Positions 2-35,327 of a stretch of 64,000 bases of DNA are shown in pieces. The number at the start of each line of letters is the position of its first letter. Position 1 is the first letter of the stretch. Made by a program: the position numbers and the translations under genes. The DNA comes from an uncultured Chloroflexota bacterium. Its GTDB lineage: Bacteria; Chloroflexota; UBA11872; VXNJ01. The notes beneath the pieces were generated by a model. It saw nothing but the letters and a program-made list of their open reading frames with translations, did no database searches and was not told the origin of the DNA. The stretch covers positions 64 through 64,063 of the forward strand of contig CAZBZS010000009.1 of the NCBI GenBank assembly GCA_964496475.1, read 5' to 3'.

Positions 2-556
2 TCAAACTTGCACATGAACTTCCCCGGCACCATTAGCCTCTCCGCCAACACTGTCATGCATATCTTCGAGGACGTTGTTGACTCCCTCGCTTCCCACGGA
101 TTCAACCACTTTCTCATCGTCAATGCCCACGGCGGCAATCGTGACATCGCCAAGCTTGTCGCGACCGAAGTCGGCTCCCGCGACGGCGTCGCCTTCATGG
201 GAGCCGTGGATGTGTGGGACCTCATCGACCCAGAAATCCTTGAGCGCCACACCGCCGCCGGTACCGGCCGCGCCGGCCATGCCTGCGAAGACGAAACCTC
301 CACCGCCCTCTACCTCTGCCCTGAAATCGTCCGCTCCGACTCCATCGCCGAAGGTCAGATCGACGACACCGCCTGGGATTTTCGAACCGCCCTCGATTCC
401 CACGGAGTCCGCACCCCCACCAACATGCACGACCTCACCGCCAACGACACCCTCGGAGACCCCACCCTCGACACCGCCAAAATCGGCCGCGAACGCATCG
501 AATCCGCCTATACTGGCCTGGCCGGGCTGATCGACACCATCACGTCTTCCACCTGA
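2..556 (+). CDS. creatininase / creatinine amidohydrolase family protein, 5'-truncated by window edge
   Basis: The frame is open from position 2. The translation carries the family-typical core with an NAHGGN motif. The N-terminal part lies outside the window. Confidence 0.7.
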   Translation, partial: SNLHMNFPGTISLSANTVMHIFEDVVDSLASHGFNHFLIVNAHGGNRDIAKLVATEVGSRDGVAFMGAVDVWDLIDPEILERHTAAGTGRAGHACEDETSTALYLCPEIVRSDSIAEGQIDDTAWDFRTALDSHGVRTPTNMHDLTANDTLGDPTLDTAKIGRERIESAYTGLAGLIDTITSST

Positions 557-601: not shown

Positions 602-922
602 TCAGGACACCGCCCGCTCTTCCACGCTGTGCCACTCACAGGCCTCGCACCACTGAATAGACATCGAACCATCCGTCGACTCAAACTCGCGCGTTTGCCC
701 CACCGGGTCTGCCTCGCACTCATGCTCGATATCCGCTACCACGTCCACCGATCCGTGAACGTGCTTCCCCACCAGCTCAGAAAAGTGCGCCGGCAACAAC
801 CTTGCCGCAAGATCACACTCGTCCAACATTGGCACGTTCTCCTGTCCCAACAGCCGCGGTTTCCACCCCACTCTCGCACCTGAATTGGAATTCAAACTAT
901 CGACTTTTGTAACCCGCCTCAC
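602..922 (-). CDS. hypothetical small protein with Cys-containing C-terminus (…WCEACEWH)
   Basis: This 106-aa ORF has ordinary acidic composition, whereas the overlapping + strand ORF is R/H-rich and looks spurious. No family was recognised, and the true start may be the internal Met (MLDECDL…). Confidence 0.35.
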   Translation of the reverse strand: MRRVTKVDSLNSNSGARVGWKPRLLGQENVPMLDECDLAARLLPAHFSELVGKHVHGSVDVVADIEHECEADPVGQTREFESTDGSMSIQWCEACEWHSVEERAVS

Positions 923-998
923 ATTCGCCTCACTCCCTCATACCGCGCGGAAATACCCCCGCCCCCCCACCTTCTCCCGTGCTACGCTGACTTCACCC

Positions 999-1084
999 GC
1001 CGGGGTGGCGGAATTGGCAGACGCATTGGACTTAAAATCCAAAGGGCATCGCCCGTGAGGGTTCGAGTCCCTCCCCCGGCACCA
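999..1084 (+). tRNA. tRNA-Leu (anticodon TAA)
   Basis: Sequence is GCCGGGGTGGCGGAATTGGCAGACGC…TTGGA-CTTAAAA-TCCAA…long variable arm…GGGTTCGAGTCCCTCCCCCGGCACCA. A 7-bp acceptor stem GCCGGGG/CCCCGGC is present. The anticodon loop is CTTAAAA, giving anticodon UAA. The long extra arm is typical of Leu, and the 3' CCA is encoded. Confidence 0.9.
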
Positions 1085-1424
1085 CAAGTCATCGTCACGC
1101 CGCCTCTAGCCCTGTGAGCGTGCGGCATTCGGGTTGTCGACCGCGATAGATGTAGCAGCGCGTGTAGCAACCAGTTGTCGAAACTGGCTGTAATCGCCCT
1201 ACGAGGCGCGCCCGTCGCGCTCCAAATCCGTCGAATTGGGGCGCAACACCACGTTCAGGTTGTCAGCCGCTTCCCGCGTCGCTGATGGCACTGCCGTGGG
1301 GTATTTTCTCATGGTCCTATCGACGCATTCGTGACCCAGCAATCCCGCTCGCATAGTGAGAACCGGGTTGGAATCGCTCACAAGGTCGGTCCTATGATGA
1401 GCGCCGATCGGAAAGGGTGAGACG

Positions 1425-4001
1425 TTGCGGTGGAGGACCGCCGGAACACGGAGGATTGGGTGCGAGCGGGAGATCGAGGGTGACGGGACACTGGCAGGAC
1501 CGAATCCGGCCGTCCGGTTTAAGGCGGCGTCGCTGATGCGGGCCGCACGCGGGCGGGCGGTGGCTTTCCATCTGCTGATGATGGCGCTGTTCGGCGCGGC
1601 GACGGTCGTGTCGCTGCGGCCGTTGCTGGTGAATGCGGCGGACGGGGTGGCGATTAAACCAGCAGGCGATCAGCTGTGGCAGGTCTCGTTGCTGGAAGGT
1701 CAGCTTCGCGCTCTGCTGAAGGAGCCAAGCACATTCTTTCAAGGCTATTTCTACTACGGGATGGGCGACGCCCTATACGGCTCCGATTTGTTGCTGGCGC
1801 TACTCCTGATCTTCGCGCCGTTGCGGCTGGCGCTGGGGAACGCCGACCTAGCTTTCAACCTCACGTGGCACATCGCCTTCTGGCTGAACGCCGTCCTGAT
1901 GTACGTCGCGGTGCTGGCGCTGACCCGCAATCGGTGGGCGGCGCTGTTGGCGGGGGCGGTGTTCGGATTCGGGTCGATTCAGATCAACTATGCACAGTCG
2001 CATTTTCAGTATGCCGGCTCGTGGTGGATTCCGCTGGCTCTGCTCTTCAGCGTGCGATTCGAGCGGACGAAGAGCTGGAAGGATTTCACCGCCGCCGTGT
2101 TGTGCGTGTGGCTCCAATTCGTGACCGTGCCGATGCTCGCGTACATTGCGGGATTCGTGGTGCTGACGTTTGCTGTGATTCCCGGGCTCTGGTGGTCGGC
2201 GCGGAACCGGAACTGGCGAGTTCCCCTGCGCATGCTCGTCGCGACGACGGTGGTGACGGCAGCGTTCTTGCCGGTGGTAATCGGCTACTTTGAATTTTCC
2301 GGCGACTGGAACGCCCAGCGGGATATCACCGAGGTCCAGAGTGGATCGCTGCAATTGCAGGATTACCTCTCGCCGTCTTCCCGGCTGTACTGGTACGAGG
2401 GGATGCAGGAGCGCTTTCCGGTGCCGACAGGGGAGCGTCGGGCTTTCCCGGGATTAGTGCCGCTGGCGGTAGGGCTGCTGGGCTTGGTTCTGGGTGGAAT
2501 GGCGCTGGTGCGGAGGGAGCGATTCGGTTGGTACGCGGTCGGGGCGCTGACGCTGGTGATCGGGTCGGTGGCGCTCACGCTTGGACCGGCCTGGAAGGTG
2601 AACGAGACGGTGACGGATATCGAGTTGCCGTACCTGTTCTTGTTCGAGAATTTCTCCATGTTCAGGGCGGTGCGGGTGGTTGCCAGATTCGCCGTGCTGG
2701 GGAACGTGGCGCTGGCGTTGCTGGCGGGGATCGCGGTGGCGATGGTGGGGCGGCGCTTTCCCTGCCGTCCACGGATGGCCGGGCTGCTGGGGGTCGGACT
2801 TGCGGCGGCGGTGCTGGTGGAGTCGTTCACCGCTCCGCTGAACGTGAACCCGGCGCCGGAGGACGTGGACCTGGAAAGGCTACTGGCCAGCGCCCGGCCG
2901 GGTCCGACGCTGTTCGTGCCCGTGAGCGGCGCCGAGGAGGTGCGCAGGCTCTGGTTCGTGACCAAGGCGGAGAGCGGTCCGCTGGTGAACGGCTACTCCG
3001 GTTTCATCTGGCCGCAGTACTGGTACTTCCGTGATGCCGCGGCGGGGGTGACAGTGGCAAACGTCTCTGGACTGGCCCGGGGTCTCGCGGCGTACGGGGT
3101 GCGAAACGTGGTCCTAGAGCGACCGAAGCTGGTTCCGGAACAGATCGCCGCATGGGAAACGTTGGGGGCGGACCCGGCGGTGGAAGCGGTGACGCAGGAG
3201 GGAGCGTGGACGCATATGCGACTGGCCCCGGCGAGCGGACCGGCGGAGCAGGCGTGGAGCGAGTTGGAGGCGGTGATGTTGCTGAAGGCGGCGCCGGCGG
3301 ACGCCGGCTTGCTGACCTGGTTGACGTTGTCGAACAATCGTGCGGAGCCGTGGATGCCGCGGAATGGGTCGCACGTTCGGCGCACGCTGGTGAAGTGGAG
3401 AAACGGAGACGGGAGTTTGGTACTGGAGTTCGAGACCGATTTGCTGCCACCGCCGTTCCTGGTCGGGGAGAATTCGCACAGTCTGATTGTGCATCTGTTC
3501 ACACCGGCGGAAACGGGTCGTTATGAGGTGACGATGGAGGCCGACGGGGAGACAATTGTGCACCAGGTGGTGGACGTGGGAGACTCGCCGCCGGCGTCAT
3601 TCGATGGAACGGTGGTGGGGCTCGCGGCCAGGTTGACCAGGATGTCGGCACGATCGTTCGAGGGCAGGCCGGGAGAGAAATTCGTATTGCAGGTGGACGC
3701 GCTGAACACCGGGTCGATGGCCTGGGAAGGGGTGGCGAACATCAGGCTGGGATGGCGCTGGTACCGGGTGCTGCCCGACGGCGATGAGATCGAGATGCCG
3801 CAATACGAGGGGAGAATCCCGCTGGTGGGTCACCTGACCGGCGAAGTCTGGCCAGGGAACGGCTACTCGTTCCGGGGACTGGTGACGACGCCGCCGGAGC
3901 CGGGGACGTTCAAGCTGCGGGTGTCGATGGTGGCTGAGATGGTGGGATGGCTCGATGCGCCGCCAGTGGTGGTGGAGGTGGTGCTGAAACGGGAGGAGTA
4001 A
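1425..4001 (+). CDS. large polytopic membrane protein (N-terminal ~12 TM, C-terminal ~400-aa beta-rich soluble domain), putative GT-C-type or YfhO-like extracytoplasmic glycosyltransferase; paralog A
   Basis: 858-aa ORF with many hydrophobic helices. A long collinear similarity to the 4396..6951 protein includes FFxGxxxxGxGDALYxSDLL and AVxxFGxIQINYA. Alignment with the paralog suggests the start is the ATG at 1536. Confidence 0.75.
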   Translation: MRWRTAGTRRIGCEREIEGDGTLAGPNPAVRFKAASLMRAARGRAVAFHLLMMALFGAATVVSLRPLLVNAADGVAIKPAGDQLWQVSLLEGQLRALLKEPSTFFQGYFYYGMGDALYGSDLLLALLLIFAPLRLALGNADLAFNLTWHIAFWLNAVLMYVAVLALTRNRWAALLAGAVFGFGSIQINYAQSHFQYAGSWWIPLALLFSVRFERTKSWKDFTAAVLCVWLQFVTVPMLAYIAGFVVLTFAVIPGLWWSARNRNWRVPLRMLVATTVVTAAFLPVVIGYFEFSGDWNAQRDITEVQSGSLQLQDYLSPSSRLYWYEGMQERFPVPTGERRAFPGLVPLAVGLLGLVLGGMALVRRERFGWYAVGALTLVIGSVALTLGPAWKVNETVTDIELPYLFLFENFSMFRAVRVVARFAVLGNVALALLAGIAVAMVGRRFPCRPRMAGLLGVGLAAAVLVESFTAPLNVNPAPEDVDLERLLASARPGPTLFVPVSGAEEVRRLWFVTKAESGPLVNGYSGFIWPQYWYFRDAAAGVTVANVSGLARGLAAYGVRNVVLERPKLVPEQIAAWETLGADPAVEAVTQEGAWTHMRLAPASGPAEQAWSELEAVMLLKAAPADAGLLTWLTLSNNRAEPWMPRNGSHVRRTLVKWRNGDGSLVLEFETDLLPPPFLVGENSHSLIVHLFTPAETGRYEVTMEADGETIVHQVVDVGDSPPASFDGTVVGLAARLTRMSARSFEGRPGEKFVLQVDALNTGSMAWEGVANIRLGWRWYRVLPDGDEIEMPQYEGRIPLVGHLTGEVWPGNGYSFRGLVTTPPEPGTFKLRVSMVAEMVGWLDAPPVVVEVVLKREE

Positions 4002-4395
4002 GGGATCTGTCGGGTCGGCTTCGGTATGCCCCTCAATGCCGGTCGACAATCGAACCACCCTGGGCAAGTTTCCGTGACTCGCACCACCCGGTACGTTGCC
4101 CGGGGGCGGTCCTCCAGCGTCCTCTAGGGCACCGGGTTGAGTACCCGGGAACCAAGCAAGATCAACTCCAAAGCCGCGGGAAGGCCGGCCGTTCGGATGA
4201 CTTCGAGAACTGCCTGACAGTGCGCCATCAAGACAGGGAGTGGGGGCGGCCGAAGTCTGACCGCGCGATGACGAAGGGTCCTGGCCATGTGACCCGAACG
4301 CGAAGTATGGACCAATGCTCGCTCCGGCCTCGGCGCGGGCGCGTACATAGCCGCTCGCCGTAGGGGGCGCGGGAGGTTTATGGCCGATACCGTGG

Positions 4396-6951
4396 CTATG
4401 GACCGGCGCGAGTCTCGTTTGGGCCAAGGACAGTGACCGGAATCTCAATGAGCTCCCCGGGAAACCAGGCGACAAGCTCGGCCAGCATCCCGACTCTCAT
4501 GACGTAATCTCCGGGCATTCCGGGGACCGATACAGTCCCGGAAAACGGATGGCCCGACCCCACCTCCACTACGCCGAAGACATGATTCAGTAGGGGGAGC
4601 CGGCCTTCCGGCACGGGACCCGGCTGGAAGGTTCCGTCCGACTGCCGCTCAAACCACTGCCAGCCCAGGCGGATGTTCGCGTCGCCGATCCAATCCACCA
4701 AGCCTGTGTTCACGGCGTCGATATGGAGCGGAATCTGTTCGCCAGGACTCGCTTCGATGTTGGCCGGCGTGCGGAGTATCAGTCTGGCGCCCAGTCCCTC
4801 GGCAGATCTCCTGAAAGGCTCCCGGATTGCATGGCCCACCTTCACTGTCCGTTCCAGAATTTTCTCGCCATCCACGGAGATCATGAGTTCGTACTCACCG
4901 GCGTCGGCAGGCGAGGCGAGTTGAATTGGAATCCCTTGCAGCTGGCCCGGTTCGAGAAACGGCGGTGGCGACCAGCCGCCGGTTGAACGGGCGACGACCG
5001 CGTTCCGTGAGTCGATCCACTTCACGTTCAAGGTGCGGGCGTGGGATCCTCCGGGAGGGATCCAGGGTTTCTCGTCCCTAGTGGCCAATACCAACGCGCC
5101 GACGATTTCGTGACCGGGTTCCACCGAGTCGACCAGAAGCCGGACGTCGAGGTCGGCCCAGCCAAATTCCGCGGGCGGAGTAAGTTCCCGCAGCGTAACC
5201 ACCACGTAGTCGCCTGCCTCACGATGAGTGTCAACCGTCGCACTGCCAGTGAAGGCGTCCCACATTGCAACATCCTCCGAAGGGATCGATGGGGTTCGGA
5301 GTACAACGTGACGGATTCCATACGCTTGCAGGGCGACCGCCAGATCGGCGGCATCGCGGACCGATCGACCCACGGTGGTTCTCTGGAATTGCTCGGTCTT
5401 GGCCCAGATGTAACCCGAATAACCGTTTACCAGTGGACCGACACCCGTCTGGGCGGCCAGCCACATGCGCTCGATTTCAGCCTCGGCGCCGTATCGCCAG
5501 TCAACGTCCTTACGCAGAACCGGTATGAACAAGGCTGGCCCGGGCCCGGCCTCACGCAGAGCCTCGGTAAGCAGCGGACGCTCTGTCATGCGATGAACAG
5601 GCAATTGCGTGGGGACGGCCTCCCCGAGTACCAGGATCGTGGCTAGAAGTCCCGCGACCGGCACCGGAAAGCGCGCCGACCAGCGGTGCCCAGCGGCCCA
5701 GGCCACCGCCGTCGCCGTCAGCAGGGCCAGACCAACGTGGACGAGAAGGGAGAACCGAGCGACAACGCGAATGGCGCGGAACATTGAGACATTCTCGAAC
5801 AGGATCGAGTAAGGCAGTCTTACGGATGTCACCGTGTCATCCCATTTCCAGTGGGTGCCAAGCGAGAAGATCAATCCGAGGATTAACAGCCCGGCGGCTG
5901 TTAGGGCCAGCGTGCTATGCCGCCCCCCGGCCACCCCGCCGCCACGGAGGCCGACGAAGAGACCGACGGCGCCAAGTCCCGCCGGAACGAATCCGGGGAA
6001 GACCGTACGTTCAAAGTAGGGCATTGGAAATGCCGCGGCCAATTTCCCGTACCAGCGTAGGCGGGATGTCGGCGAAAAGTAGTCCTGCAACTCAACCGAC
6101 CAGAACTGCACATCGCCCACGGTTCGCTGGGCCTGCCAGAGAGCCGCATAGTGCTGGTAGCCAAGAACCAGTGGCATGAAAAGTAGTGAAACCAAGCTTG
6201 CGACGATGCCGAGGACCACCAGCGCCCGCCAATTCCGACGCCACATGATGCGGGTAACCACCGCGGGACCGGCGAATACCAGTACCGCCAGACCGGCCAT
6301 GATGCCGAGGTGGACGCCGGTGGCGAATTGAATCCCGGTCAGCAAGAGGGCCAGTCCGATATCCCACGGACTCAAGGTCCGGGAGAATCGGACCGCGAAG
6401 ACGATCGCTAGCGGTAGCCACCAGGCGGCCAGAAATTGCAGGTGAAAGGCGTAGTTGATCTGAATGGCGCCGAAGGCGTACACCGCGCCGGCGGCGAGGG
6501 CGCCGGCACGCGAGCGAGTCAGAACGGACCCGGCCCAGTACATGCTCAACGCGTTCAGGACAAACGCTAGGAGATAGGCGAGGTTGAAGGCCAGAAGTGC
6601 ATGCCCAGTTGCCCATCGCAGCGGTGCGAAGAGGGCGAGTAAGCCGAGCAGGAGATCGGAAGAATAGAGGGCGTCCCCCGAGCCAAAAAAGATATTGCCG
6701 GAGAAGAATTGGCCCGGGCGCGACAGGAGTGACGATGTCTCGAACTCGAGCAGGCTCAGTTGATAAAGCTGATCGTGAAACGGCTCGTACGGAAGGTGAT
6801 CGGCAAGCCCGGTGGCAAGTGGATAGGTGAACAGGACCGCCGCTGTGGAAAAGATGCTGAATACCGCCGTCCCCCAACGCCAACCGGGGAACGTTCGAGA
6901 GAATACGCGGCCGGCTCCTAGCACCGTTCTTTCAGCTGCCTTCAATTCCAT
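4396..6951 (-). CDS. large polytopic membrane protein, putative GT-C-type or YfhO-like glycosyltransferase; paralog B (convergent with paralog A)
   Basis: 851-aa ORF that is a paralog of 1425..4001, with the same TM block and a C-terminal beta-rich domain ending …LAELVAWFPGELIEIPV. It is convergent with paralog A. Confidence 0.75.
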   Translation of the reverse strand: MELKAAERTVLGAGRVFSRTFPGWRWGTAVFSIFSTAAVLFTYPLATGLADHLPYEPFHDQLYQLSLLEFETSSLLSRPGQFFSGNIFFGSGDALYSSDLLLGLLALFAPLRWATGHALLAFNLAYLLAFVLNALSMYWAGSVLTRSRAGALAAGAVYAFGAIQINYAFHLQFLAAWWLPLAIVFAVRFSRTLSPWDIGLALLLTGIQFATGVHLGIMAGLAVLVFAGPAVVTRIMWRRNWRALVVLGIVASLVSLLFMPLVLGYQHYAALWQAQRTVGDVQFWSVELQDYFSPTSRLRWYGKLAAAFPMPYFERTVFPGFVPAGLGAVGLFVGLRGGGVAGGRHSTLALTAAGLLILGLIFSLGTHWKWDDTVTSVRLPYSILFENVSMFRAIRVVARFSLLVHVGLALLTATAVAWAAGHRWSARFPVPVAGLLATILVLGEAVPTQLPVHRMTERPLLTEALREAGPGPALFIPVLRKDVDWRYGAEAEIERMWLAAQTGVGPLVNGYSGYIWAKTEQFQRTTVGRSVRDAADLAVALQAYGIRHVVLRTPSIPSEDVAMWDAFTGSATVDTHREAGDYVVVTLRELTPPAEFGWADLDVRLLVDSVEPGHEIVGALVLATRDEKPWIPPGGSHARTLNVKWIDSRNAVVARSTGGWSPPPFLEPGQLQGIPIQLASPADAGEYELMISVDGEKILERTVKVGHAIREPFRRSAEGLGARLILRTPANIEASPGEQIPLHIDAVNTGLVDWIGDANIRLGWQWFERQSDGTFQPGPVPEGRLPLLNHVFGVVEVGSGHPFSGTVSVPGMPGDYVMRVGMLAELVAWFPGELIEIPVTVLGPNETRAGP

Positions 6952-7321
6952 CCGTGCCGATCGGTCTGGCTCCGGGTCCCGGAGAATTCTGACGGAAAGC
7001 GAGTGAGATTCGAGGCCGAACCGGCACGGCGGCCGTCTCCCTCACCTTCTGGAAACCACGGGCGCCCGGCAGCCCGCATGCCTCGGATTCCGCGAGAGCC
7101 GACAACGACACAGATGATAGGCGGAAATCGAGGCTCCCCGCTCCAGGGATCGCCCGAAGGCGCGTCGAAACGGTGACCAAGCCGGCCCCGGCCCAGGTTC
7201 GCGAGAACTGGTGCCGGTTGGGTGACCCGGATTCCCGGACGGGCACGGTCGAGATCACGCTAGTATCTCACCCGTCCACGCGTGGGAACCACTCACCGTT
7301 TTATTTCTGGCTGGACCTAGC

Positions 7322-8467
7322 ATGCGAATCGCACTCATCTATGACGCCGTCTATCCCTACGTAAAAGGTGGGGCCGAGCGGCGCTACCTCGAAATCGCCC
7401 GCCGGCTGTCAACCCGGCATGAGGTCACCCTAGTAAGTTTTGGCTGGTGGAAGGACACTCCCCCGGCCGACGCCGGCCCAAATCTCAGGTACCTTTCAGT
7501 GGGCACGCCACGGACGCTATACGGGAAGGATGGCACGCGCGCGGCGAGCGAGGCCGTGCTGTTCGGCGCCGCCGTCGTGCCGACCCTCCTGCGGGAACGC
7601 TTCGACATCGTCGATTGCTGTTCATTCCCGTACTTCTCCGTCCTCTCAGCCCGTATGGTAACCGCCGGACGCCAGCTCCCCTTCGTCGTGACCTGGCACG
7701 AGCACTGGGGGCCGTACTGGCGCGAGTACTGGGGCTGGAAGGGCGCGCTCGGCCGCCTGGTAGAGCAGGCCGCCGTGATAGCCTCACCGTTATCCATTTC
7801 GGTTTCGGAATTCACGCGAAAGCGGCTCCTCGCCGGTATGTTCGGACGGTCTCCCCAGAGCGTCGTGACCATCCCCAACGGCATCGATTTCGATGTGATT
7901 GCCGCTACTAGAAAAGGTTCTGATCCAGTTGACCTTGTCTACGTTGGGCGCCTCATGCGGCACAAGCGCGTGGAATTGCTAATCGAGGCAATCGGGTTAC
8001 TGCGAGATCAAGGCCGCCATGTCCGTTGCCGTCTCGTCGGTGACGGGCCCGAGCGCGAACGGCTGATCGACCTGACCAACCGCCTCGGTGTGTCCCCGCT
8101 GATCGAATTCACCGGCTTCGTACCCGAATTGCAGGTCTACGAAATAATGAAATCCGCCCGCGCTCTCGTGCTCACGTCCGAGAGAGAGGGCTTTGGCAAC
8201 GTCGTGCTAGAAGCCAATTGTTGCGGTATCCCTGCTATCGTCGCCCGCGGACCCGAGAGCGCGAGTCCCGAACTAGTGAGTGAAAACGTCACCGGCCAGA
8301 CCTGCATCTTGTCGGCCGTGGCGGTCGCCGATTCCATAGCCGACGTCCTTGATGCCTCCGGCCGTTTTCGGAAGGATGATTGCATCGCCCACGCCCAGAG
8401 GTTTGAATGGACGAAGGTGAGCGACCGTGTCCTTGACGTATACGAGTCCGTTCTTGCCCAACGCTGA
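7322..8467 (+). CDS. glycosyltransferase family 4 (GT-B, retaining)
   Basis: The N-terminus is MRIALIYDAVYPYVKGGAERRY and the C-terminal domain carries EGFGNVVLEANCCGIPAIV, the GT4 E-x7-E region. Confidence 0.85.
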   Translation: MRIALIYDAVYPYVKGGAERRYLEIARRLSTRHEVTLVSFGWWKDTPPADAGPNLRYLSVGTPRTLYGKDGTRAASEAVLFGAAVVPTLLRERFDIVDCCSFPYFSVLSARMVTAGRQLPFVVTWHEHWGPYWREYWGWKGALGRLVEQAAVIASPLSISVSEFTRKRLLAGMFGRSPQSVVTIPNGIDFDVIAATRKGSDPVDLVYVGRLMRHKRVELLIEAIGLLRDQGRHVRCRLVGDGPERERLIDLTNRLGVSPLIEFTGFVPELQVYEIMKSARALVLTSEREGFGNVVLEANCCGIPAIVARGPESASPELVSENVTGQTCILSAVAVADSIADVLDASGRFRKDDCIAHAQRFEWTKVSDRVLDVYESVLAQR

Positions 8468-8520
8468 TCCGCGCCGGCCCCTGGCACCGCTCATCCCGGC
8501 CCCCGATTCGGAGTCTCCTT

Positions 8521-9309
8521 TTGTTCACCGGTGAGCGACTGGATCCCCGGTTGGCCACCGGCACGCAGATCTACCATCTGCACCGCTCCCGGTACCGCTT
8601 TGCGGCCGGGCTCGCTACATCAAAGCGGGTGCTGGACGTTGCCTGCGGGACAGGTTACGGGTCCGCCGAAATGGCGTCCTCCGCGCGGAGTCTCACCGCG
8701 GTTGACCTGTCGCCGGCGGCTCTACGCGACGCCGCGGCGACCTACAACTCAGCGAGGGCAAACTTCGCCGCCATGAACGCCCTCGATCTTGCCCTCACCA
8801 CCGCGTCATTCAATCTTGTGGTGGCCTTCGAGATGATCGAGCACATGGCCGATCCGGACCGCTGCTTGCAAGAGATTCATAGAGTGCTCGAGCCGGGCGG
8901 AACACTCATCATTTCGGCCCCGAATCGCGCCGTGCACAGTCCCGACCGCCAGAGCCCTTTGCACCGCTGGCACTACTTTGAACCGACCGTCGACGAATTC
9001 CGTCGGCTTCTGACCGAAGGTGGATTCACCGTCGACCGACTGCTCGGGCAGCACGCAAACAGCCGAATCGGCACCACGCTGGCGGAATCGAAACGCAACT
9101 CGCTCGTCGTGGCAGCCGTGCGGATCGGCCAGTTCACGCTGCCAAAGCTACCGCCGTTCTTGCAGCGATTGACCCTGCGCACAATCCGGAGCCGGCGGTT
9201 TCTGTGGCGACTGCTACCCTCATACCAGCCGGCGGACGAACGCGACGTCTTCTTCAGCCTCGATTCGCCCGAACTCGCTATGAATCTGGTAGCCGTATGC
9301 TCGCGATGA
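8521..9309 (+). CDS. class I SAM-dependent methyltransferase
   Basis: Carries the VLDVACGTGYGS motif I and an acidic motif II. A TTG start follows a GGAG ribosome binding site. Confidence 0.8.
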   Translation: MFTGERLDPRLATGTQIYHLHRSRYRFAAGLATSKRVLDVACGTGYGSAEMASSARSLTAVDLSPAALRDAAATYNSARANFAAMNALDLALTTASFNLVVAFEMIEHMADPDRCLQEIHRVLEPGGTLIISAPNRAVHSPDRQSPLHRWHYFEPTVDEFRRLLTEGGFTVDRLLGQHANSRIGTTLAESKRNSLVVAAVRIGQFTLPKLPPFLQRLTLRTIRSRRFLWRLLPSYQPADERDVFFSLDSPELAMNLVAVCSR

Positions 9310-9361: not shown

Positions 9362-10486
9362 GTGACATCCGGTCCGCTGATCTCCGTCGTGTTGCCATGC
9401 CTGGACGAGGCGGAGACTGTCGGGCCGACCGTGCTGCGGGCCCTCGAGGGAATCCGGCGCACCGGCCGGAGCGGTGAGGTTGTGGTAGTGGACAACGGTT
9501 CGGTCGATCGGTCAGCCGAAATGGCCACCACCAATGGCGCTCGCGTCGTTGCCGAGTCGAGGCCCGGGTACGGAGCCGCACTGCTGCGCGGATTTGCCGA
9601 AGCGCACGGCGAGATACTGGTGATGGCCGACGCCGATGACACCTATGAATTGGACAACTTACCCGCCCTGATTGACCGCCTCGACGACGGCGCCGATCTG
9701 GCGATCGCCAATAGATACTCCGACATGCCGCACGACGCAATGCCATGGCTCCATCGGAACATTGGGACCCCGACGATAAACTGGCTTCTGCGGCGCGCAT
9801 ACGGCGTTCAAGTCGGCGATAGCCAGAGCGGTTACCGGGCGTTCACCCGCGACTGTCTTCAACGCCTGGATCTGCGGTCCTCCGGGATGGAGCTCGCCTC
9901 CGAAATGCTGGCCAAAGCCGCCATCAAGGGCATGCGGGTCGACGAGGTCCCGTCGACCTATCTGGTGCGCAGAGGCGAAAGCAAACTCCGCACCTTCCGC
10001 GACGGGTGGCGGCATCTGCGTTTGATCCTCACGCTTACCCCAACCATCCTCTACATCGTCCCCGGAGTGATTCTGTCGCTGCTGGGGGTGGTGACTTTCG
10101 CCCTGGCGTTTTCGGTTTCAAGCGGCCTCGATGTCGGCGGACTGACTTGGCAGCCCGTCTTCGCGGGTCCCATCTTCGTGATCGTCGGATTTAACGCCAC
10201 CGCTATGGGAATTGCCGTGCGCGGGCTACATATCCGGCGGGGTCTGCGGCAGACCTCCGGGATCGATCGGTGGAGCAGATTCTTGGGGTTAGAGACCGTC
10301 TTGGTTGGGGCCGCGCTGGCTATTCTCGCCGGAATCGCCATCGACATCTTCATCTTTACCCGTTGGGTCGGCGACGCCGCGCCCCTTCTCGCCGGCCCCC
10401 AGTTGGCCGCTACGGCACAAACCTTGATTGTGGTGGGCACGAACGCCGGGCTCGTCGGCTTTCTGACCGCTTCGTTCAAAACCTAG
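9362..10486 (+). CDS. GT2 polyprenol-phosphate sugar synthase (DPM1/GtrB/CsbB-like) with C-terminal 4-TM anchor
   Basis: N-terminal ISVVLPCLDEAETV…VVVVDNGSVDRS with a DAD motif marks a GT-A fold. The C-terminal ~140 aa are hydrophobic, as in GtrB-like enzymes. Confidence 0.8.
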   Translation: MTSGPLISVVLPCLDEAETVGPTVLRALEGIRRTGRSGEVVVVDNGSVDRSAEMATTNGARVVAESRPGYGAALLRGFAEAHGEILVMADADDTYELDNLPALIDRLDDGADLAIANRYSDMPHDAMPWLHRNIGTPTINWLLRRAYGVQVGDSQSGYRAFTRDCLQRLDLRSSGMELASEMLAKAAIKGMRVDEVPSTYLVRRGESKLRTFRDGWRHLRLILTLTPTILYIVPGVILSLLGVVTFALAFSVSSGLDVGGLTWQPVFAGPIFVIVGFNATAMGIAVRGLHIRRGLRQTSGIDRWSRFLGLETVLVGAALAILAGIAIDIFIFTRWVGDAAPLLAGPQLAATAQTLIVVGTNAGLVGFLTASFKT

Positions 10487-10519: not shown

Positions 10520-12751
10520 GTGCATAAGCCCGGCCGACCGACCGGAACTGCCCGGCGCCCGGGTCCCGGGCGCCCGATAATAGTCCTAGCAACCGTCGCC
10601 AACCTGCTGCTGGCGGCCCTCGTGGCGATGGTTCTCGTCGGCGGCCCGATTATATCCTTCAACATCACCAAGACCGCCAGTCTCGCTGGTTTGCTCCTGC
10701 CAGCGTCATACCTGCTGCTAGCGAAGGTTGCCCCCGGCGACCGGTGGCCACTACTGCAGCGACTGACCGTTACGAGCCTGCCCTTCCTTGCCGTGGTCGT
10801 CGCCGCCTACTGGAGTGAGCGGCTCAGCCACCAACTGGTGGCAACCGGTGATTGGGGCTGGCTGGTTCTGACCGCGTATGCCGCGATCCAGGTCGGCTTG
10901 ATCGCCCTGTCCGCCGGCATCCCCCGTGTTACCGAGGCCGCGCTCGGCGGCCTCTCCGGTATCGGCGGCGCTGTCATCATCCACGTTGCCGCCTTTCCGT
11001 CCCCGCTCCCTCCCTTCTGGGCTCTGGTCGGGTTGGTTGCCGGCGCCACTCTCGCCGTTTTCATGACCCGGCTGCCCCCGCGGCCCACCCGCCGGACCCA
11101 GTACTCGATTCCCTACCGTGTTCTGCCTCTCTCGCTCGCCTGGATCGGCGCGTCTGTAGTCGCATTTCCCGGATCCCCGCGGCACGAGCTTGCCTCGTCC
11201 GCCAGCGTTCAGGTTCTGGCCGTAGTGCTCACCCTGTCCGCCACCGGGGTTGTCGGACTGCTGTGGCATTCCGAGCGTCGCGGCATAGATGGATTGTTCG
11301 CCGCGACGGTGATCCCCCTCAAAGCGATTGGCCCGGTTGTGGTCACCGCAAGTTTGCTTGCCCTGGGTGCACTGCAGGCTGCATCGTATTCGGCCGTGAC
11401 CGCCGATGATCTCGGACGTTACTGGTCCGTGGCCGATAGCTTGCGGTTCTTCGGCACCTACCCAGTGTGGGACGTTGGGTTATTCGCCTGGATGGATCTC
11501 CCAATCTTGCCGCTGCTCATGGCTGCTTCGTTCCAGCTGCTCGGTCACAGTTACGCCTCGGCCCTCGCCCCAATAGCAGTAGCAAACCTCTTCTTGCCGC
11601 TGCTGATTTATGGCGCTTCACTGGCTTGGGGTGCCGGTCAGCGCGTGGCCTTCGCCGTTGCCGTGTTGGTGGTCGTAGCTCCGCCAATCCAGATTTATAG
11701 TCTTGGGTCGGCTGAGCCGGACGCAGTCTTCATCACGATGCTGGCCGGCTCGATGTGGTTGTTGGGAACTGGCATCCGGTCTCCACGCCGCATTCACTGG
11801 GGTCTGGCACTGAGTCTGGCTATCGGAGCATTGGTGCTGAGCCGCCCCGAGGGCATGCTGTACGGCGCCAGTGTCGCCGGCGTAGTTATTCTTGTGGACC
11901 GACGTCGGTGGTCGTTGTCGGTTCTGGCGGTCGCCTTCATCCTTGTGGCTCCCTTTGTACTGCTCAGCCTAGACCAGGTCGGACGGCCGTGGCCCACGAA
12001 TCGACAGGAGCTCGCCGTATCCAACCTAGCCAGTAACCTAAGCCTCGTGGCGGAGGTCACGTGGGAGAAACTTGCCCGGGTCGTTCTTCTCAATGACATC
12101 CGCTTTCCGATACTGGTCGGAGCGGCTCTTGCCGCGTTCGCTGTCGGTGCAGTAGTTCACATCCGCCGGTGCCGGTGGGTAGCACTTCTTCCGATCGCAG
12201 TCGGCGTAAACGTGATGGTCTCCCTCAGTGTGCCGGCTGACACTGTTCGGACAGATGAATTGGACGAATTCGTCCGTCATTTCGCCTACCCGATACCTGT
12301 GTTCGCCGTTTTTGTGGCAACCGGGTTGACGGAAGTCGGGCGGTTGCTTTCCACTATCTCTCGGGGGAATAGGCTATTACCCTTCGTCGGTCCTGCGTTT
12401 GCTGCGTGGCTTGTCGCCGGCAGCCTTTACCTCCTGGCAACACCGGAGGAATTCCATCATGGAGCTCGCAGCGGAAGCCTCCTCACGGCAGACATCTACG
12501 TGAACGCTCCGGAACTCTGGGGCCATAACTTGGAGCTACCGTGTCCGCCGTGTAGAGGCGAAGCCTGGAATTTTGAGGCGTTCAGGCACGGGTTGTTCGA
12601 CAACTATCGTCCCTTCGATGTTCACTCAGGATCCGACGGTGCTGCATATCAGACCCTATCTGGGGTCGCTGTGGCACTCGGATTCCTTGCTCTCCTGTCG
12701 TCTCAGTTCCGGTCGCTGCCATCACGCCGACCAACCACCGGCAACAGGTGA
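10520..12751 (+). CDS. GT-C glycosyltransferase of ArnT/PMT_2 type with ~290-aa N-terminal membrane extension
   Basis: 743 aa with more than 15 TM segments. The first-loop acidic motif …TADDLGRYWSVADSL matches ArnT DExRYAExxRxM but sits near residue 290 instead of about 40. The gene immediately follows the GT2 gene. Confidence 0.65.
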   Translation: MHKPGRPTGTARRPGPGRPIIVLATVANLLLAALVAMVLVGGPIISFNITKTASLAGLLLPASYLLLAKVAPGDRWPLLQRLTVTSLPFLAVVVAAYWSERLSHQLVATGDWGWLVLTAYAAIQVGLIALSAGIPRVTEAALGGLSGIGGAVIIHVAAFPSPLPPFWALVGLVAGATLAVFMTRLPPRPTRRTQYSIPYRVLPLSLAWIGASVVAFPGSPRHELASSASVQVLAVVLTLSATGVVGLLWHSERRGIDGLFAATVIPLKAIGPVVVTASLLALGALQAASYSAVTADDLGRYWSVADSLRFFGTYPVWDVGLFAWMDLPILPLLMAASFQLLGHSYASALAPIAVANLFLPLLIYGASLAWGAGQRVAFAVAVLVVVAPPIQIYSLGSAEPDAVFITMLAGSMWLLGTGIRSPRRIHWGLALSLAIGALVLSRPEGMLYGASVAGVVILVDRRRWSLSVLAVAFILVAPFVLLSLDQVGRPWPTNRQELAVSNLASNLSLVAEVTWEKLARVVLLNDIRFPILVGAALAAFAVGAVVHIRRCRWVALLPIAVGVNVMVSLSVPADTVRTDELDEFVRHFAYPIPVFAVFVATGLTEVGRLLSTISRGNRLLPFVGPAFAAWLVAGSLYLLATPEEFHHGARSGSLLTADIYVNAPELWGHNLELPCPPCRGEAWNFEAFRHGLFDNYRPFDVHSGSDGAAYQTLSGVAVALGFLALLSSQFRSLPSRRPTTGNR

Positions 12752-13299: not shown

Positions 13300-14664
13300 G
13301 TGCCACCCAACTTCCTTTTTCTCATTGCCGATGACCATCGGCACAATGCGATTGGTTCGTTGGGAACGCCTGCAGTTGCGACGCCAAATCTTGACGCGCT
13401 GGCAGCTGCGGGTACAGCGTTGACCCATACATACATCATGGGTTCGACCTCGGCGGCTGTTTGCATGCCGAGTCGGGCCATGCTGCTGACCGGACGAAGT
13501 CTGTTTCGGGTTTTCGGACCCAATCCGGGTAACGTTTCGCCATACCCGATGGATCCAGAGATACGAACGTTTCCGGAGCTTCTGCGAATGGCGGGTTATC
13601 GAACATACGGCGTGGGCAAGTGGCATAACGAACCTGGGCTGTATGCACGGAGTTTTGACGATGGCGGGAGCATTTTCTTCGGTGGTATGTCCGAGCACGC
13701 GGCGGTTCCGGTTCACACCTTCCATCCGCGAGGCATGTATCCGTTGGATGCAGCGACTCCCGGACGTGTTTTCTCATCCGAGCTGTTTGTAGATAGCGCG
13801 GCCGAGTTGCTCCGTACACATCCTGCCGAACGTCCATTTTGTATGTATGTGGCGTTTACGGCTCCCCATGATCCGCGCACGCCTCCACCGGAATTTGTGC
13901 GCAAGTATCCAGTGTCAGACATTGAGTTACCGCCCAATTTTGTCCCCACGCATCCGTTTGACAACGGGGAGTTGGGTGGACGTGATGAGCAGCTGGCGGC
14001 CCATCCTCGTGATCCTGACGAGGTGCGTCGTCATATTGCTGCCTATTACGGAATGGTCAGTCATCTCGATGCACAGATTGGCCGTTTGCTCGACGAGCTC
14101 GAGGCGACCGGTTACGCGAATGACACCATCGTCGTTTATACGGCCGACCATGGGTTGGCTCTTGGACAACACGGCTTGCTCGGGAAGCAGAATCTGTATG
14201 ACCACAGTCTGCGGGTTCCGCTCATCATCCGTGGCCCGGATGTGCCCCGGGACGAACGACGCGATGGCCTCTGCTATCTGATGGATGTGTTTCCGACAAT
14301 CCTTGACCTGGCCGGGCTGGAGCTGCCTGAGGAGTGCGAAGGCTTGAGCCTCTTACCGATGATCCAGGGGGCAGATCTGGATGTCCGCGAGTCCATCTTT
14401 GCGGCGTTCCAGAGGGATCAGGAACTCGGGGTTGAAGATTCCTTTCAGCGGGCCGTTCGCCAGGGCGACTGGAAGCTGATTGATACCCGGGCGGCAGGAG
14501 AGCAGCACAATCAGCTCTTCAATCTTGGGTCGGATCCGTGGGAGATGCGGAATCTGACAACTCAGGCAGATCAGGCTGAGCGGCTGGACGAGATGCGCAG
14601 ACTGATGATGCACTGGCGTGCTGTTGTTGGAGACACGCTGTCGGACGAATGGACGGTCCGATAG
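13300..14664 (+). CDS. sulfatase (formylglycine-dependent, C-x-P-x-R type), no signal peptide
   Basis: A GTG start is followed by PNFLFLIADDHRHN and then CMPSRAMLLTGR, the CxPxR formylglycine motif. An in-frame stop 2 codons upstream excludes any leader peptide. Confidence 0.85.
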   Translation: MPPNFLFLIADDHRHNAIGSLGTPAVATPNLDALAAAGTALTHTYIMGSTSAAVCMPSRAMLLTGRSLFRVFGPNPGNVSPYPMDPEIRTFPELLRMAGYRTYGVGKWHNEPGLYARSFDDGGSIFFGGMSEHAAVPVHTFHPRGMYPLDAATPGRVFSSELFVDSAAELLRTHPAERPFCMYVAFTAPHDPRTPPPEFVRKYPVSDIELPPNFVPTHPFDNGELGGRDEQLAAHPRDPDEVRRHIAAYYGMVSHLDAQIGRLLDELEATGYANDTIVVYTADHGLALGQHGLLGKQNLYDHSLRVPLIIRGPDVPRDERRDGLCYLMDVFPTILDLAGLELPEECEGLSLLPMIQGADLDVRESIFAAFQRDQELGVEDSFQRAVRQGDWKLIDTRAAGEQHNQLFNLGSDPWEMRNLTTQADQAERLDEMRRLMMHWRAVVGDTLSDEWTVR

Positions 14665-15041: not shown

Positions 15042-15854
15042 TTGCCTGAATCCGGCGTCCCCCGCGACGAACAATCCATCCCGGCGAGTCCTTTCGCGCG
15101 TCTGAATCACTTTCTGGCAGTTGCCTACCAGGTCCTGTCCACAAATCCGCGCCTGCTGCTCTTTCTGGGCCTGAACGCGGCGGTCAACATTGTCATCCTG
15201 TGGGCCTTCCTGGGCACTGTGGTGGACGACCCTGGCGGCGAACCGACCGCCGGCGACCCCGGGCTTCTGCTCGATTTCATCCGCTCGGCGGCACAGAATC
15301 TCCCTCTCCACTTCTTTCAGTTCGCACTTTTGGTCGCCGCCCTCGCGGCGGTTCGGGGTGAGACCATGACCGCCGGGGACGCCTTCCGCGTAGCCCGCGC
15401 GCGCATCGTGCCTGTCGTTATTCTTGCCCTCCTCACCACCACATTCGGCCTAGCCACGCAGCTCGTGACCGAATCTTTGGTCGAACGTGAAGCCGGTATC
15501 GTCAGCCTTCCCATTGTCCTGGCCTGGTTCAGCTGGTTCGCCATCGACCTCCTAGCCCTGTCCCTGGTGGCCGACACGAGCGGCAGCATGATGGCCTACC
15601 TGGCGGGCGCCGGCCGGCTGGCCCGGCGAGTCTGGGGTGACGTTCTCATCCTGGTCTTCGTTTTCATGCTCACGACCAGCTTCCTGGCCCCGCTTCTGAT
15701 TGGCGGCGTCGCGTCCGGCGCCGTGGGCGCGGAACCCTCCAGGCAGGCGGTGCTGGTCATCGCATCTATATCGACCATCGTCCACAACATCATTTTGTCT
15801 TTTATCTACATTTACGGCGCCCGGCTGTACATCTACGCGGTCACGGCTCGCTAG
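15042..15854 (+). CDS. hypothetical polytopic membrane protein
   Basis: TTG start with a GGACGGAG ribosome binding site. About 7 hydrophobic helices are present and no known motif was recognised. Confidence 0.55.
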   Translation: MPESGVPRDEQSIPASPFARLNHFLAVAYQVLSTNPRLLLFLGLNAAVNIVILWAFLGTVVDDPGGEPTAGDPGLLLDFIRSAAQNLPLHFFQFALLVAALAAVRGETMTAGDAFRVARARIVPVVILALLTTTFGLATQLVTESLVEREAGIVSLPIVLAWFSWFAIDLLALSLVADTSGSMMAYLAGAGRLARRVWGDVLILVFVFMLTTSFLAPLLIGGVASGAVGAEPSRQAVLVIASISTIVHNIILSFIYIYGARLYIYAVTAR

Positions 15855-15934
15855 CTGCCTGACTCCAGGCACCACCTCGCGCTTGGATTAGAATTGAAAC
15901 AAGCGTCTAGTAGTCGACTGGAACGGAGAAAATC

Positions 15935-16789: not shown

Positions 16790-16904
16790 GCTCCGTCAGA
16801 GCTACATCCCGGCGGTAGAAGTCCGGCCGTCCGCCGACCCGCCGACCCGCCGACGTATAGAGTCCAGTCGCGTCACCTCTCCGCCCGCGACATCGGAGAC
16901 CCAA

Positions 16905-34554: not shown

Positions 34555-35327
34555 TTGAGATTCCAGCTCAGCCGGGTGCGTGCGGGCCTGGCCGAGCCAT
34601 CCCGCTGGGATCTTCACTACGTGGAGCGCACGGGCTCGACGAATGACGACGCCAGGGCTGCGGCCAGTGAGGGCGCGGTGATGGAGCGGTGTTCCTGGCC
34701 GGATTTCAGACGGCCGGGCGCGGTGCCAGGGGACGGAGCTGGCAATCGCCGCCCGGGGGTTCGCTACTGATGTCGGTGGTGCTGCGCCCAGAGAAGGGGA
34801 CGCCGGTGACGCTGCTGACCAACCTGGGCGTACTGGCGCTGACGGAAGGTCTTAGGATCGCTACCGGACTCAACACTCAGATCAAATGGCCGAACGATGC
34901 GGTGATCCGTGACCTCAAAGTGGGTGGCATCCTAGTGGAGCTGGTAGCAGATGCGGTGATCGTGGGGATCGGCGCGAATTTGAATTTCCCGGCGACAGGA
35001 ATCCTAGAACCTGACTACCCGGCCACGACGGTGCAGGACGAACTTGGCCGGGCGTGCGATCGGGAGGCGGTAACCGTCGCAGTGCTGGACTCGCTGGGCG
35101 AGCTCTATGACGAACTACGGGCGGAGCCCGACGCATTGGACGATCGCTGGCGGGAACTTTCATCTGTCGTCAGCCGGCAGGTGATAGTGGAAACTGAATC
35201 GGAGACGCTGGCCGGGTTGGTAACCGGTTTTAGCGACGACGGCCGTCTGTTGTTACGAGAGGCCGACGGATCGGAGAGAGCGATTCTCGCCGGTCGAGTC
35301 CGGTTGCCCAGGCTAGGGGCAGATTAA
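34555..35327 (+). pseudogene. birA: biotin-[acetyl-CoA-carboxylase] ligase (group I BirA) interrupted by a +1 frameshift near 34689
   Basis: Frame A reads …HYVERTGSTNDDARAAASEGAVMER then stops at 34770. Frame B reads VFLAGFQTAGRGARGRSWQSPPGGSL… and continues to 35327. Joined, they give the canonical …EGAVMERVFLAGFQTAGRGRRGRxW… biotin-binding core. Confidence 0.65.

Follow-up and report, generated by a model that had tools for sequence, protein, structure and literature searches.

The analysed window, 64,000 nt (64 kb) of DNA from an uncultured Chloroflexota bacterium, contains a six-gene locus in which two genes for large membrane proteins, A and B, are arranged tail-to-tail with a spacer of 394 nt between them (Table 1). 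The preliminary description of this stretch reported convergent paralogs of about 855 aa, and the gene models agree with it. On the other side of B, a divergent intergenic region separates it from four genes encoding a GT4-type glycosyltransferase, a methyltransferase, a membrane-anchored GT2, and a third GT-C-like enzyme. The tRNA-Leu gene that had been placed upstream of the pair was also found, 340 nt from the start of A, and is treated here as a neighbour of A only.

Table 1. Features of the six-gene locus and related elements of the window (positions within the window; residue ranges refer to the encoded proteins)
Feature	Position	Strand	Description
tRNA-Leu(TAA)	999..1084	+	ARAGORN; Rfam tRNA, 63.8 bits
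Putative promoter -10 box of gene A	1393-1398	+	TATGAT; in region 1393..1424
Putative Shine-Dalgarno of gene A	1410-1421	+	GGAAAGGGTGAG; in region 1393..1424
Gene A	1425..4001	+	858 aa from TTG; clade A, DUF6311-type
A, predicted domains		+	Membrane GT-C, residues ~1-470; alpha/beta, ~471-608; Ig-like, ~609-725 and ~726-858
A-B spacer	4002..4395		Between convergent genes
Gene B	4396..6951	-	851 aa from ATG; clade B
B, predicted membrane GT-C domain	5608-6951	-	Residues 1-448
B, predicted alpha/beta domain	5167-5607	-	Residues 449-595
B, predicted Ig-like domain 1	4816-5166	-	Residues 596-712
B, predicted Ig-like domain 2	4399-4815	-	Residues 713-851
Divergent intergenic region B/GT4	6952..7321		87% identical to relative
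GT4 (GT-B fold), cytoplasmic glycosyltransferase	7322..8467	+	Pfam Glycos_transf_1 (E 1e-29), Glyco_transf_4
Class I SAM-dependent methyltransferase	8521..9309	+	Pfam Methyltransf_11 (E 3e-24); conserved in cluster
Membrane-anchored GT2, polyprenyl-phosphate-sugar-synthase-like	9362..10486	+	Pfam Glycos_transf_2
Third GT-C enzyme, GT39/PMT_2-like	10520..12751	+	743 aa (longest ORF); 707 aa in public call
Bac_transf initiating phosphoglycosyltransferase	39619-41124		In the same window

A and B are true paralogues. BLASTP aligned them with 41% identity and 57% positives over 817 residues (E 9e-177, far above chance), and the alignment runs collinearly from TM1 to the C-terminus. As had been proposed, the soluble tail shares in the similarity as well as the membrane block. 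The motifs GDALYxSDLL and IQINYA, singled out earlier, lie within conserved stretches of the membrane domain. Relatives bear out the start codons assigned to both genes. For B, the ATG is retained in three lineages. The TTG of A is preceded by what appears to be a -10 box plus a Shine-Dalgarno sequence, an element that the window shares with L008, L005, and L002, four lineages in all, ahead of their A-type genes. One public gene call starts A at an ATG at position 1536, giving a protein of 821 aa; this codon reads ATA in the closest syntenic relative.

The preliminary description also held that the pair arose by inverted duplication and that the block could have been acquired horizontally by integration at the tRNA gene. 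The first of these proposals fails on the age of the paralogy. Clade C (53% identity) and clade D (44-45%) proteins from other genomes are nearer to A than B is (40%), and B is nearer to P0004 (50%) and P0005 (47%) than to A; the two belong to different deep clades and so are not the products of a local inverted duplication. A recent event of this kind is also rejected on synonymous divergence, which is saturated (dS 1.8, dN 0.60), and the only inverted similarity left in the DNA is short and motif-level (70-80%). The dN/dS check recommended earlier was run for A against B, and its ratio is not meaningful because of the saturated dS; comparisons with orthologues were used instead, and they revealed purifying selection on both A (dN/dS 0.21) and B (0.18). 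The adjacency of paralogues recurs in four different arrangements. In other lineages, the B-type gene and a clade-D paralogue form a tandem pair (L006/L013), and the A-type gene is found beside UvrD and a clade-C paralogue (L002-L005). Judged from these sequence comparisons, A and B are anciently diverged paralogues.

The proposed acquisition by way of the tRNA was examined on several lines. The 3' end of the tRNA was searched for as fragments of 14-30 nt with 0-3 mismatches on both strands, and no repeat of at least 18 nt (up to 3 mismatches) was found in the 64 kb. No integrase or transposase was detected on either side of the block, and no flanking mobile-element repeats were seen around positions 900-7400, apart from the inverted similarity derived from the paralogues themselves. 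A relative at dS ~0.5 (the L008 lineage) has the same six-gene layout adjoining a tRNA-Leu gene, with the whole block present rather than patchily distributed, and the flanks consist of housekeeping genes, among them RelA, RecJ, CoaBC, and the rib operon. In composition, the block as a whole does not stand out: its GC content (0.60-0.67 vs 0.56-0.66 in the flanks) is typical of the window, B and the four cluster genes show nothing unusual in their codon usage, and A alone deviates in its synonymous codons (KL 0.155; G3 0.57 vs C3 0.25). The atypical codons of A, together with the position of the convergent pair next to a tRNA gene, could be read in favour of integration, as could two further features: DNA homology to the syntenic relative begins just 66 nt after the tRNA, which in that genome is a different isoacceptor (tRNA-Leu(CAG) at the equivalent position), and A-type genes occur in variable genomic contexts among relatives. 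Given the G3-rich codons, the variable context, and the homology break 3' of the tRNA, a past rearrangement of A is likely. Set against the deep separation of the two clades, the shared layout, and the lack of att-like repeats in the window, a recent inverted duplication on a tRNA-borne block is scarcely credible, and this reading may be regarded as already largely refuted. The locus is better described as a conserved gene cluster, probably for cell-envelope glycosylation, than as an acquired island.

The non-coding parts of the locus differ in conservation. In the A-B spacer, positions 4002-4182 (181 nt) are missing from the syntenic relative and were rejected as a repeated element, since no second copy occurs in the window or in any of the loci compared, and positions 4183-4395 are 70% identical, about the neutral level; neither terminator-like sites nor Rfam matches were found in this spacer. 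The region between B and the GT4 gene is better conserved than third codon positions (66-83%) and presumably holds divergent promoters and leaders. A hidden gene was rejected for both 1240-1535 and 6952-7321 (no codon periodicity, p > 0.27), and so was a structured RNA (folding z of -0.5 to -1.0; no Rfam match at E <= 1). The conserved part of the spacer proximal to A is explained by the putative -10 box and Shine-Dalgarno sequence and the start codon.

A and B belong to an unnamed family of 12,487 clusters at 50% identity, and neither protein reaches the curated threshold of any model in Pfam or NCBIfam. Eight of 26 family members match PTPS_related (PF10131) weakly over TM2-TM7, with scores of 10.8-24 bits against a cut-off of 26.4 bits; the pair itself scores 13 and 10.8 bits. 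PTPS_related is a member of the Pfam GT-C clan CL0111 (PMC7801869). Distant relatives, linked to the family with an hhalign probability of 100% (E 4e-60), match YfhO, DUF2079, DUF6044, and DUF6541 weakly (sub-threshold for YfhO), and the YfhO profile (PF09586) has no match in A, B, or the 26 close members. A second likeness concerns PF19830 (DUF6311), for which precomputed matches exist for A, its orthologues, and A/C-clade proteins but none for B or the B clade; the Pfam copy scanned here returned no PF19830 even for P0042. The family appears to have been filed as DUF6311 in an older Pfam release and to be remotely related to PTPS_related and YfhO. Among the literature searched, no paper mentions DUF6311, and therefore the name gives no functional information. 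Sequence comparison with solved structures yielded no significant match (best, TMEM260, E 0.24).

Structural modelling was more informative. The AlphaFold2 model of B has a pLDDT of 84.6 at full length and 89.9 for residues 1-600 (pTM 0.90), and the top 30 Foldseek PDB matches of the latter are all GT-C proteins (29 at probability 1.00 and one at 0.99), including DPY19, STT3, AftD, AftA, PglB, AglB, ArnT, EmbA/B/C, Pmt4, and ALG12. The first match outside GT-C is an MFS transporter at rank 31 with probability 0.23, which no other fold exceeds. The highest query TM-score was obtained for AftD (0.52), with PglB at 0.46; the GT-C scores are moderate (0.38-0.52; 0.31-0.52 across the top 30) and the rmsd is high, which is normal between GT-C families that are so distantly related. 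The full-length model of B also matches AftD, DPY19, and STT3. According to these models, A and B are GT-C-fold membrane proteins. Model helices and hydropathy indicate about 11 TM helices, within the GT-C range of roughly 8-13, and the density of Lys and Arg (0.18 in the proposed inside loops vs 0.07 in the outside loops) suggests that the N-terminus is inside and the C-terminus outside.

A candidate active site emerges from the conserved residues. Across 43 sequences, which reach down to 22% identity, D60, R276, R395, and R399 (B numbering) never vary, and the position of D99 holds Asp or Glu in all but one. The two paralogues both retain D60, D99, H170, R188, Q208, R276, E314, R395, R399, E444, and the NGYSG motif. 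The invariant Asp (D60 in B, codon 6772-6774; D82 in A, codon 1668-1670) lies 13 residues after TM1, in a modified acidic motif, GDQ with a single Asp, rather than a classical DxD. On the predicted topology it would be located in the first extracytoplasmic loop and, by position, would be the counterpart of the catalytic Asp in GT-C enzymes of solved structure. The tail, described earlier as beta-rich and as fitting a carbohydrate-binding or Ig-like function, is indeed beta-rich and Ig-like: it comprises an alpha/beta domain, which directly follows the last TM helix and carries the invariant NGYSG motif, and two Ig-like beta-sandwiches. An NBR1-type Ig domain is matched by 17 of 26 family members, Foldseek relates the tail to tandem beta-sandwich proteins, and hhalign finds a weak relationship between the two sandwiches (73%).

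The remaining genes of the locus supply the pathway context. The GT2 combines a GT2 domain with a C-terminal TM region (PF26629 GT2_TM_C in its orthologues) and resembles AglJ, DPM, PpgS, and ArnC types; its best NCBIfam matches, all below equivalog cut-offs, are AglJ (E 9e-45), dolichyl-P-hexose transferase (1e-30), and PpgS (4e-22). The GT39-like gene is conserved beside the GT2, and its homologues carry PF13231 and PF09913, some being called 'glycosyltransferase family 39 protein' by NCBI. The GT4 is linked to B-clade genes in four lineages, and the GT2, GT39-like, GT4, and methyltransferase genes together are linked to them in the window, L008-10, L006/L013, and L012. Most family members, those of clade D, are singletons that lack a linked GT2, so that the link to a sugar donor comes from the B clade only. 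A crude scan of the 64 kb (ORFs of 80-220 aa, three or more hydrophobic segments) revealed no GtrA- or Wzx-type flippase, which may be encoded elsewhere in the genome; the locus itself has no small multi-TM ORF, and the only such candidate in the window (55223-55852) was rejected as DUF4389.

Taken together, the fold, the invariant residues, and the conserved gene linkage lead us to regard A and B as GT-C glycosyltransferase paralogues that transfer lipid-phosphate-linked sugars onto an envelope glycan or protein outside the membrane, an assignment to which we give a probability of about 0.75. In the proposed scheme, the GT4 and the methyltransferase would carry out cytoplasmic steps, and the membrane-anchored GT2 would load a sugar onto polyprenyl phosphate. 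The loaded carrier would then be flipped across the membrane, and A, B, and the GT39-like enzyme would pass the sugars on to an acceptor outside, which may be an envelope glycan, a lipoglycan, or a surface protein. The GT2 of the conserved locus is the presumed source of the lipid-phosphate-linked donor. Within A and B, the invariant Asp of the first extracytoplasmic loop may act as the catalytic base, the three invariant Arg residues of later, outward-facing loops may bind the lipid phosphate, and the two Ig-like sandwiches may hold the acceptor. The two paralogues probably differ in the residue or linkage that they add or in the acceptor on which they act.

Some of the same observations could also be accommodated by an oligosaccharyltransferase-like activity, in which A and/or B would transfer a pre-assembled glycan en bloc from a polyprenyl-diphosphate carrier to a surface (S-layer-type) protein, instead of single sugars from polyprenyl-monophosphate donors, the lipid-linked oligosaccharide being built by the GT4 and the methyltransferase. 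The best structural matches include STT3, PglB, and AglB, the locus encodes the GT4 and methyltransferase, and an initiating phosphoglycosyltransferase of the Bac_transf type is present in the same window. Moreover, the NGYSG motif belongs to the alpha/beta domain that directly follows the last TM helix, which we take to be the position of the acceptor-binding WWDYG motif in oligosaccharyltransferases. However, A and B have no sequence match to the STT3 family and contain neither WWDYG nor a second DxD, the GT2 directly beside the GT-C genes is of the polyprenyl-monophosphate-sugar-synthase type, and the best TM-score belongs to AftD, an enzyme with a monophosphate donor and a polysaccharide substrate. 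We therefore consider en bloc transfer rather improbable. Still less probable, and in our estimate very unlikely, is that one or both paralogues are non-catalytic, serving as an acceptor-binding or scaffold partner of another GT-C enzyme (e.g., in a heteromeric complex) or in a different membrane function. The presence of three GT-C-like genes in one locus and the large Ig-like tails of A and B are compatible with such a role, and a split of acceptor recognition and catalysis between proteins has been the subject of speculation (PMC8035078). Against it, both proteins keep every invariant polar residue of the family and are under similar purifying selection (dN/dS ~0.2). Degenerate pseudo-enzymes usually lack such invariant residues.

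A wider version of the glycosyltransferase assignment can be put forward only tentatively, and we regard it as doubtful as a whole: the family would be a distinct GT-C family outside CAZy that builds a Chloroflexota-specific envelope lipoglycan or surface-protein glycan, with adjacent cross-clade paralogues forming Emb-like heteromers (A+B here, B+D and A+C elsewhere) and with the alpha/beta-NGYSG and tandem Ig-like domains making up a new acceptor module.

Marine and sponge-associated Chloroflexota are represented, to our knowledge, by metagenome-assembled genomes alone, and little is understood of their cell envelope. The glycosyltransferase assignment of A and B overturns nothing established. 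Adjacent paralogues and carbohydrate-binding tails are both familiar among the GT-C enzymes of Actinomycetota and Firmicutes. Through this assignment, an unnamed family of ~12,500 clusters gains a fold predicted with confidence, a candidate active site, and a setting in a pathway that comprises a GT4, a methyltransferase, a polyprenyl-P-sugar-synthase-like GT2, and three GT-C enzymes. This offers a usable start for annotating envelope glycosylation across Chloroflexota.

Among known systems, STT3/PglB/AglB and DPY19 gave the lowest Foldseek E-values with B (1.6e-6 to 2e-4). In these enzymes the catalytic Asp lies in the first external loop, and the last TM helix is followed by a soluble domain. 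The A/B family differs from them in the absence of a sequence match and of the WWDYG, DK, and MI motifs, as well as in the architecture of the tail. The systems composed of a GT-A enzyme, a flippase, and a GT-C enzyme, whose general logic, including the carbohydrate-binding tails of large GT-C enzymes, has been described (PMC8035078), are similar in that a membrane-anchored GT-A/GT2 makes a C55-P-sugar and the GT-C enzyme transfers the sugar outside, onto an envelope polymer. The locus encodes a GT2 of this type, and distant relatives of the family show weak YfhO matches; in contrast to these systems, A and B match no YfhO model, no GtrA/GtcA gene was found in the window, and the locus combines a GT4 and a methyltransferase with as many as three GT-C genes. 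The acceptors known in the GT-A/flippase/GT-C systems are teichoic acids, and we know of none in Chloroflexota.

The mycobacterial EmbC/EmbA/EmbB and AftD enzymes (GT-C, CAZy GT53-type) are likewise large GT-C membrane enzymes matched at Foldseek probability 1.00, with no detectable sequence similarity to the A/B family. AftD carries extracellular carbohydrate-binding domains (PMC8035078), whereas the A/B family combines ~11 TM helices with a tail of an alpha/beta domain and two NBR1-like Ig domains instead of CBM-type domains. The hosts differ as well, being Chloroflexota for A/B and Actinomycetota for Emb/AftD. The Emb proteins use a polyprenyl-monophosphate sugar donor, EmbA and EmbB form a heterodimer, and the three paralogues, encoded side by side, possess comparable C-terminal beta-sandwich domains. 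A and B resemble this array in their adjacent paralogous GT-C genes and predicted beta-sandwich tails.

Genes A and B, a convergent pair whose stop codons lie 394 nt apart (Table), very probably encode membrane proteins with the GT-C fold, and the reading in which both act as GT-C transferases using a lipid-linked sugar outside the membrane is given a probability of roughly 0.75. No Pfam or NCBIfam model was matched above its threshold by either product. The AlphaFold2 model of full-length B (26 family members) is confident (pLDDT 84.6, pTM 0.78), and that of residues 1-600 (43 sequences; B numbering is used unless A is named) is better (pLDDT 89.9, pTM 0.90). When the latter was compared with the PDB by Foldseek, the first 30 matches were all GT-C glycosyltransferases (29 at probability 1.00, one at 0.99), among them DPY19, yeast and human STT3, AftD (TMq 0.52, rmsd 7.4), AftA, PglB (TMq 0.46), AglB, ArnT, EmbA/B/C, Pmt4, and ALG12; the first different fold, an MFS transporter, appeared at rank 31 with probability 0.23. 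AftD, DPY19, and STT3 were also matched by the full-length model. PTPS_related, a member of the Pfam GT-C clan CL0111 (PMC7801869), is weakly matched by 8 of the 26 family members. Profile-profile comparison links residues 25-561 to shorter relatives without the Ig tail (probability 100%, E 4e-60), a few of which weakly match YfhO, DUF2079, DUF6044, or DUF6541.

Table. Features of the A/B locus, the rest of the window, and related loci (window positions unless a locus or residues are named)
Feature	Position	Strand	Description
Creatininase-family tandem pair	L040 (flank) 7391-9021; 8-556		directly upstream of tRNA-Leu; window starts inside second gene
tRNA-Leu(TAA)	999-1084		
tRNA-Leu(CAG)	L008/L010 55-141		same place in syntenic relative
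Non-coding stretch	1240-1390		upstream of A
Gene A	1425-4001	+	ORF, 858 aa, TTG start
Segment missing from syntenic relative	4002-4182		181 nt, right after stop of A
Gene B	4396-6951	-	ORF, 851 aa, ATG start
B tail, alpha/beta domain	residues 449-595		
B tail, Ig-like sandwiches	residues 596-712, 713-851		
Non-coding stretch	6952-7321		B-GT4 gap
GT4 glycosyltransferase	7322-8467		
Methyltransferase	8521-9309		class I SAM
GT2	9362-10486		C-terminal membrane region; best similarities AglJ, dolichyl-phosphate-hexose, PpgS, ArnC type polyprenyl-phosphate-sugar synthases
GT39-like membrane protein	10520-12751		743 aa; homologues carry PMT_2 (PF13231), sometimes named GT39
Sulfatase	13300-14664		
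Three tandem paralogous DUF6159 genes	15042-17750		270, 284, 342 aa; downstream of sulfatase
Three unannotated ORFs	35324-37256		ahead of second glycan-assembly cluster
Second glycan-assembly cluster	37189-42221		whole region
GT4	37189-38364		second cluster
Bac_transf initiating phosphoglycosyltransferase	39619-41124		second cluster; CoA_binding_3 domain
GT4	41085-42221		second cluster
Split clade-C paralogue	L005 3477-5929		beside UvrD; ORFs of 417 and 403 aa
Regions compared for G3/C3	8-556, 1536-4001; L002 4275-7780, 10001-12490		

Only six columns are invariant in 43 sequences, down to 22% identity (D60, P180, R276, R395, R399, and P477), and the near-invariant ones include D99, H170, R188, Q208, E314, E444, and the NGYSG motif at 509-513. 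All of these positions are retained in both A and B, and codon comparisons with orthologues indicate purifying selection on each (dN/dS ~0.2); that one or both proteins are non-catalytic is very unlikely. A model with 11 transmembrane helices, the N-terminus inside and the C-terminus outside, agrees with helix positions, hydropathy, and the positive-inside rule (K+R density 0.18 in the proposed inside loops versus 0.07 in the outside loops), and would place D60, R276, R395/R399, and the entire tail outside the membrane. The two Ig-like sandwiches of the tail have a PGxYxLRV-type motif in common (hhalign 73%), an NBR1-type Ig domain is matched by 17 of the 26 family members, and the tail of the full-length model matches tandem beta-sandwich proteins in Foldseek (RbmA, VPS26, factor XIII barrels, and complement MG domains).

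As the preliminary description had proposed, A and B are true paralogues, similar in the soluble tail as well as in the membrane block: BLASTP aligns 817 collinear residues at 41% identity and 57% positives (E 9e-177). Comparison with relatives supports the assigned start codons of both genes. The ATG of B is kept in three lineages, and the TTG of A is preceded by a TATGAT/TATCAT box and the Shine-Dalgarno sequence GGAAAGGG, both of which precede A-type genes in four lineages; the public gene call P0040 (821 aa) starts A at an alternative ATG at 1536, where the nearest syntenic relative has ATA.

Profile search of the family yielded 12,487 clusters (50% identity) at E ≤ 1e-3 and 1,047 at E ≤ 1e-30, and the 27 loci recovered from species-representative genomes are all in MAGs of Chloroflexota, many of which have a marine or sponge-associated origin. 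By pairwise identities and a neighbour-joining tree without bootstrap support, A and B fall in separate deep clades, A clustering with the family proteins P0041-45 as sister to clade C and B with P0002-4; the single copy of most genomes belongs to the large clade D. A is 53% identical to clade C, 44-45% to clade D, and 40% to B, and dS between A and B is saturated (1.8). The layout of the window (A, convergent B, GT4, methyltransferase, GT2, GT39-like, with tRNA-Leu upstream) recurs in the relatives' loci L008-L010 (A 79%, B 83% identical), and predates divergence from the L008 lineage (dS ~0.5). In L006/L013 the four-gene cluster accompanies a B-type gene, and a clade-D paralogue comes next in tandem. 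The A-type gene of L002-L005 (84%) adjoins both a clade-C paralogue and UvrD and lacks the cluster in its vicinity; L001, L007, and most GTDB loci have clade-D singletons amid housekeeping genes. The separate clades, with A closer to clades C and D than to B, the saturated dS, and the varying arrangements point to juxtaposition of two old paralogues rather than the inverted duplication in place that had been suggested. In L005 the clade-C paralogue is broken into two ORFs; a frameshift, pseudogene formation, or faulty assembly could account for this.

The proximity of tRNA-Leu had also prompted the idea of an acquired island, which did not hold: no att-like repeat was found, neither side of the block has an integrase, no repeats flank it, the upstream flank carries RelA/SpoT, RecJ, CoaBC, pantothenate kinase, and creatininase genes, GC content is ordinary, and B and the cluster genes have typical codon usage. 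A is strongly G3-rich (G3 0.57, C3 0.25), unlike nearly all other genes of the window; the same bias in its L008 and L002 orthologues, together with its variable context, suggests relocation of A inside these genomes; the bias is not evidence of foreign origin. Either an island or an inverted duplication is extremely unlikely. Asymmetry of G and C at third codon positions is extreme and varies from gene to gene (creatininase gene of the window, C3 0.69 and G3 0.10; clade-C paralogue of L002, C3 0.68, versus its A orthologue, G3 0.61), possibly a trace of the strand or replication context that the genes once had and of rearrangement since.

The tRNA-Leu genes of the window and the syntenic relative are 64% identical, and DNA homology resumes 66 nt past the end of each; either the isoacceptor was replaced in situ or a tandem pair lost different members. 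The two non-coding stretches, compared between two lineages, are 87-92% identical to L008 versus 66-83% at third codon positions, show no coding periodicity, unusually stable fold, or Rfam match, and are probably regulatory. No second copy of the segment following A was found within the window or among all fetched loci.

A four-gene cluster, from GT4 to the GT39-like gene, stands divergent from B. Its GT2 and GT39-like products, taken with A and B, suggest a locus with a single synthase for the lipid-sugar donor and three transferases of GT-C type, a content also like the way actinobacterial lipoglycans get assembled. GT2 would load a sugar onto polyprenyl phosphate at the inner face of the membrane; the sugar would be flipped (a crude scan of the window found no flippase gene), and A, B, and the GT39-like enzyme would each pass a sugar to an extracytoplasmic acceptor. 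D60 (D82 in A) is the candidate catalytic base, the invariant arginines would bind the lipid phosphate, and the NGYSG alpha/beta domain and Ig-like domains could hold the acceptor in position. GT4 and the methyltransferase would work on the cytoplasmic side, e.g., in primer building or modification. The main rival, en-bloc transfer onto protein as by oligosaccharyltransferases, is rather improbable. A lipid-linked acceptor for the GT-C enzymes might be supplied by the second glycan-assembly cluster.

A and B are members of a known superfamily, but of a family without a characterised member; a literature search for DUF6311, its older Pfam name, found no paper. The finding is real and aids annotation of Chloroflexota envelope biogenesis, and will not surprise a specialist. 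In Emb proteins, too, the tails are of a comparable kind, and the paralogous genes lie side by side. The architecture of A and B, a GT-C domain followed by an alpha/beta domain and two NBR1-like Ig domains, resembles, with variations, that of AftD, which has extracellular carbohydrate-binding domains (PMC8035078).
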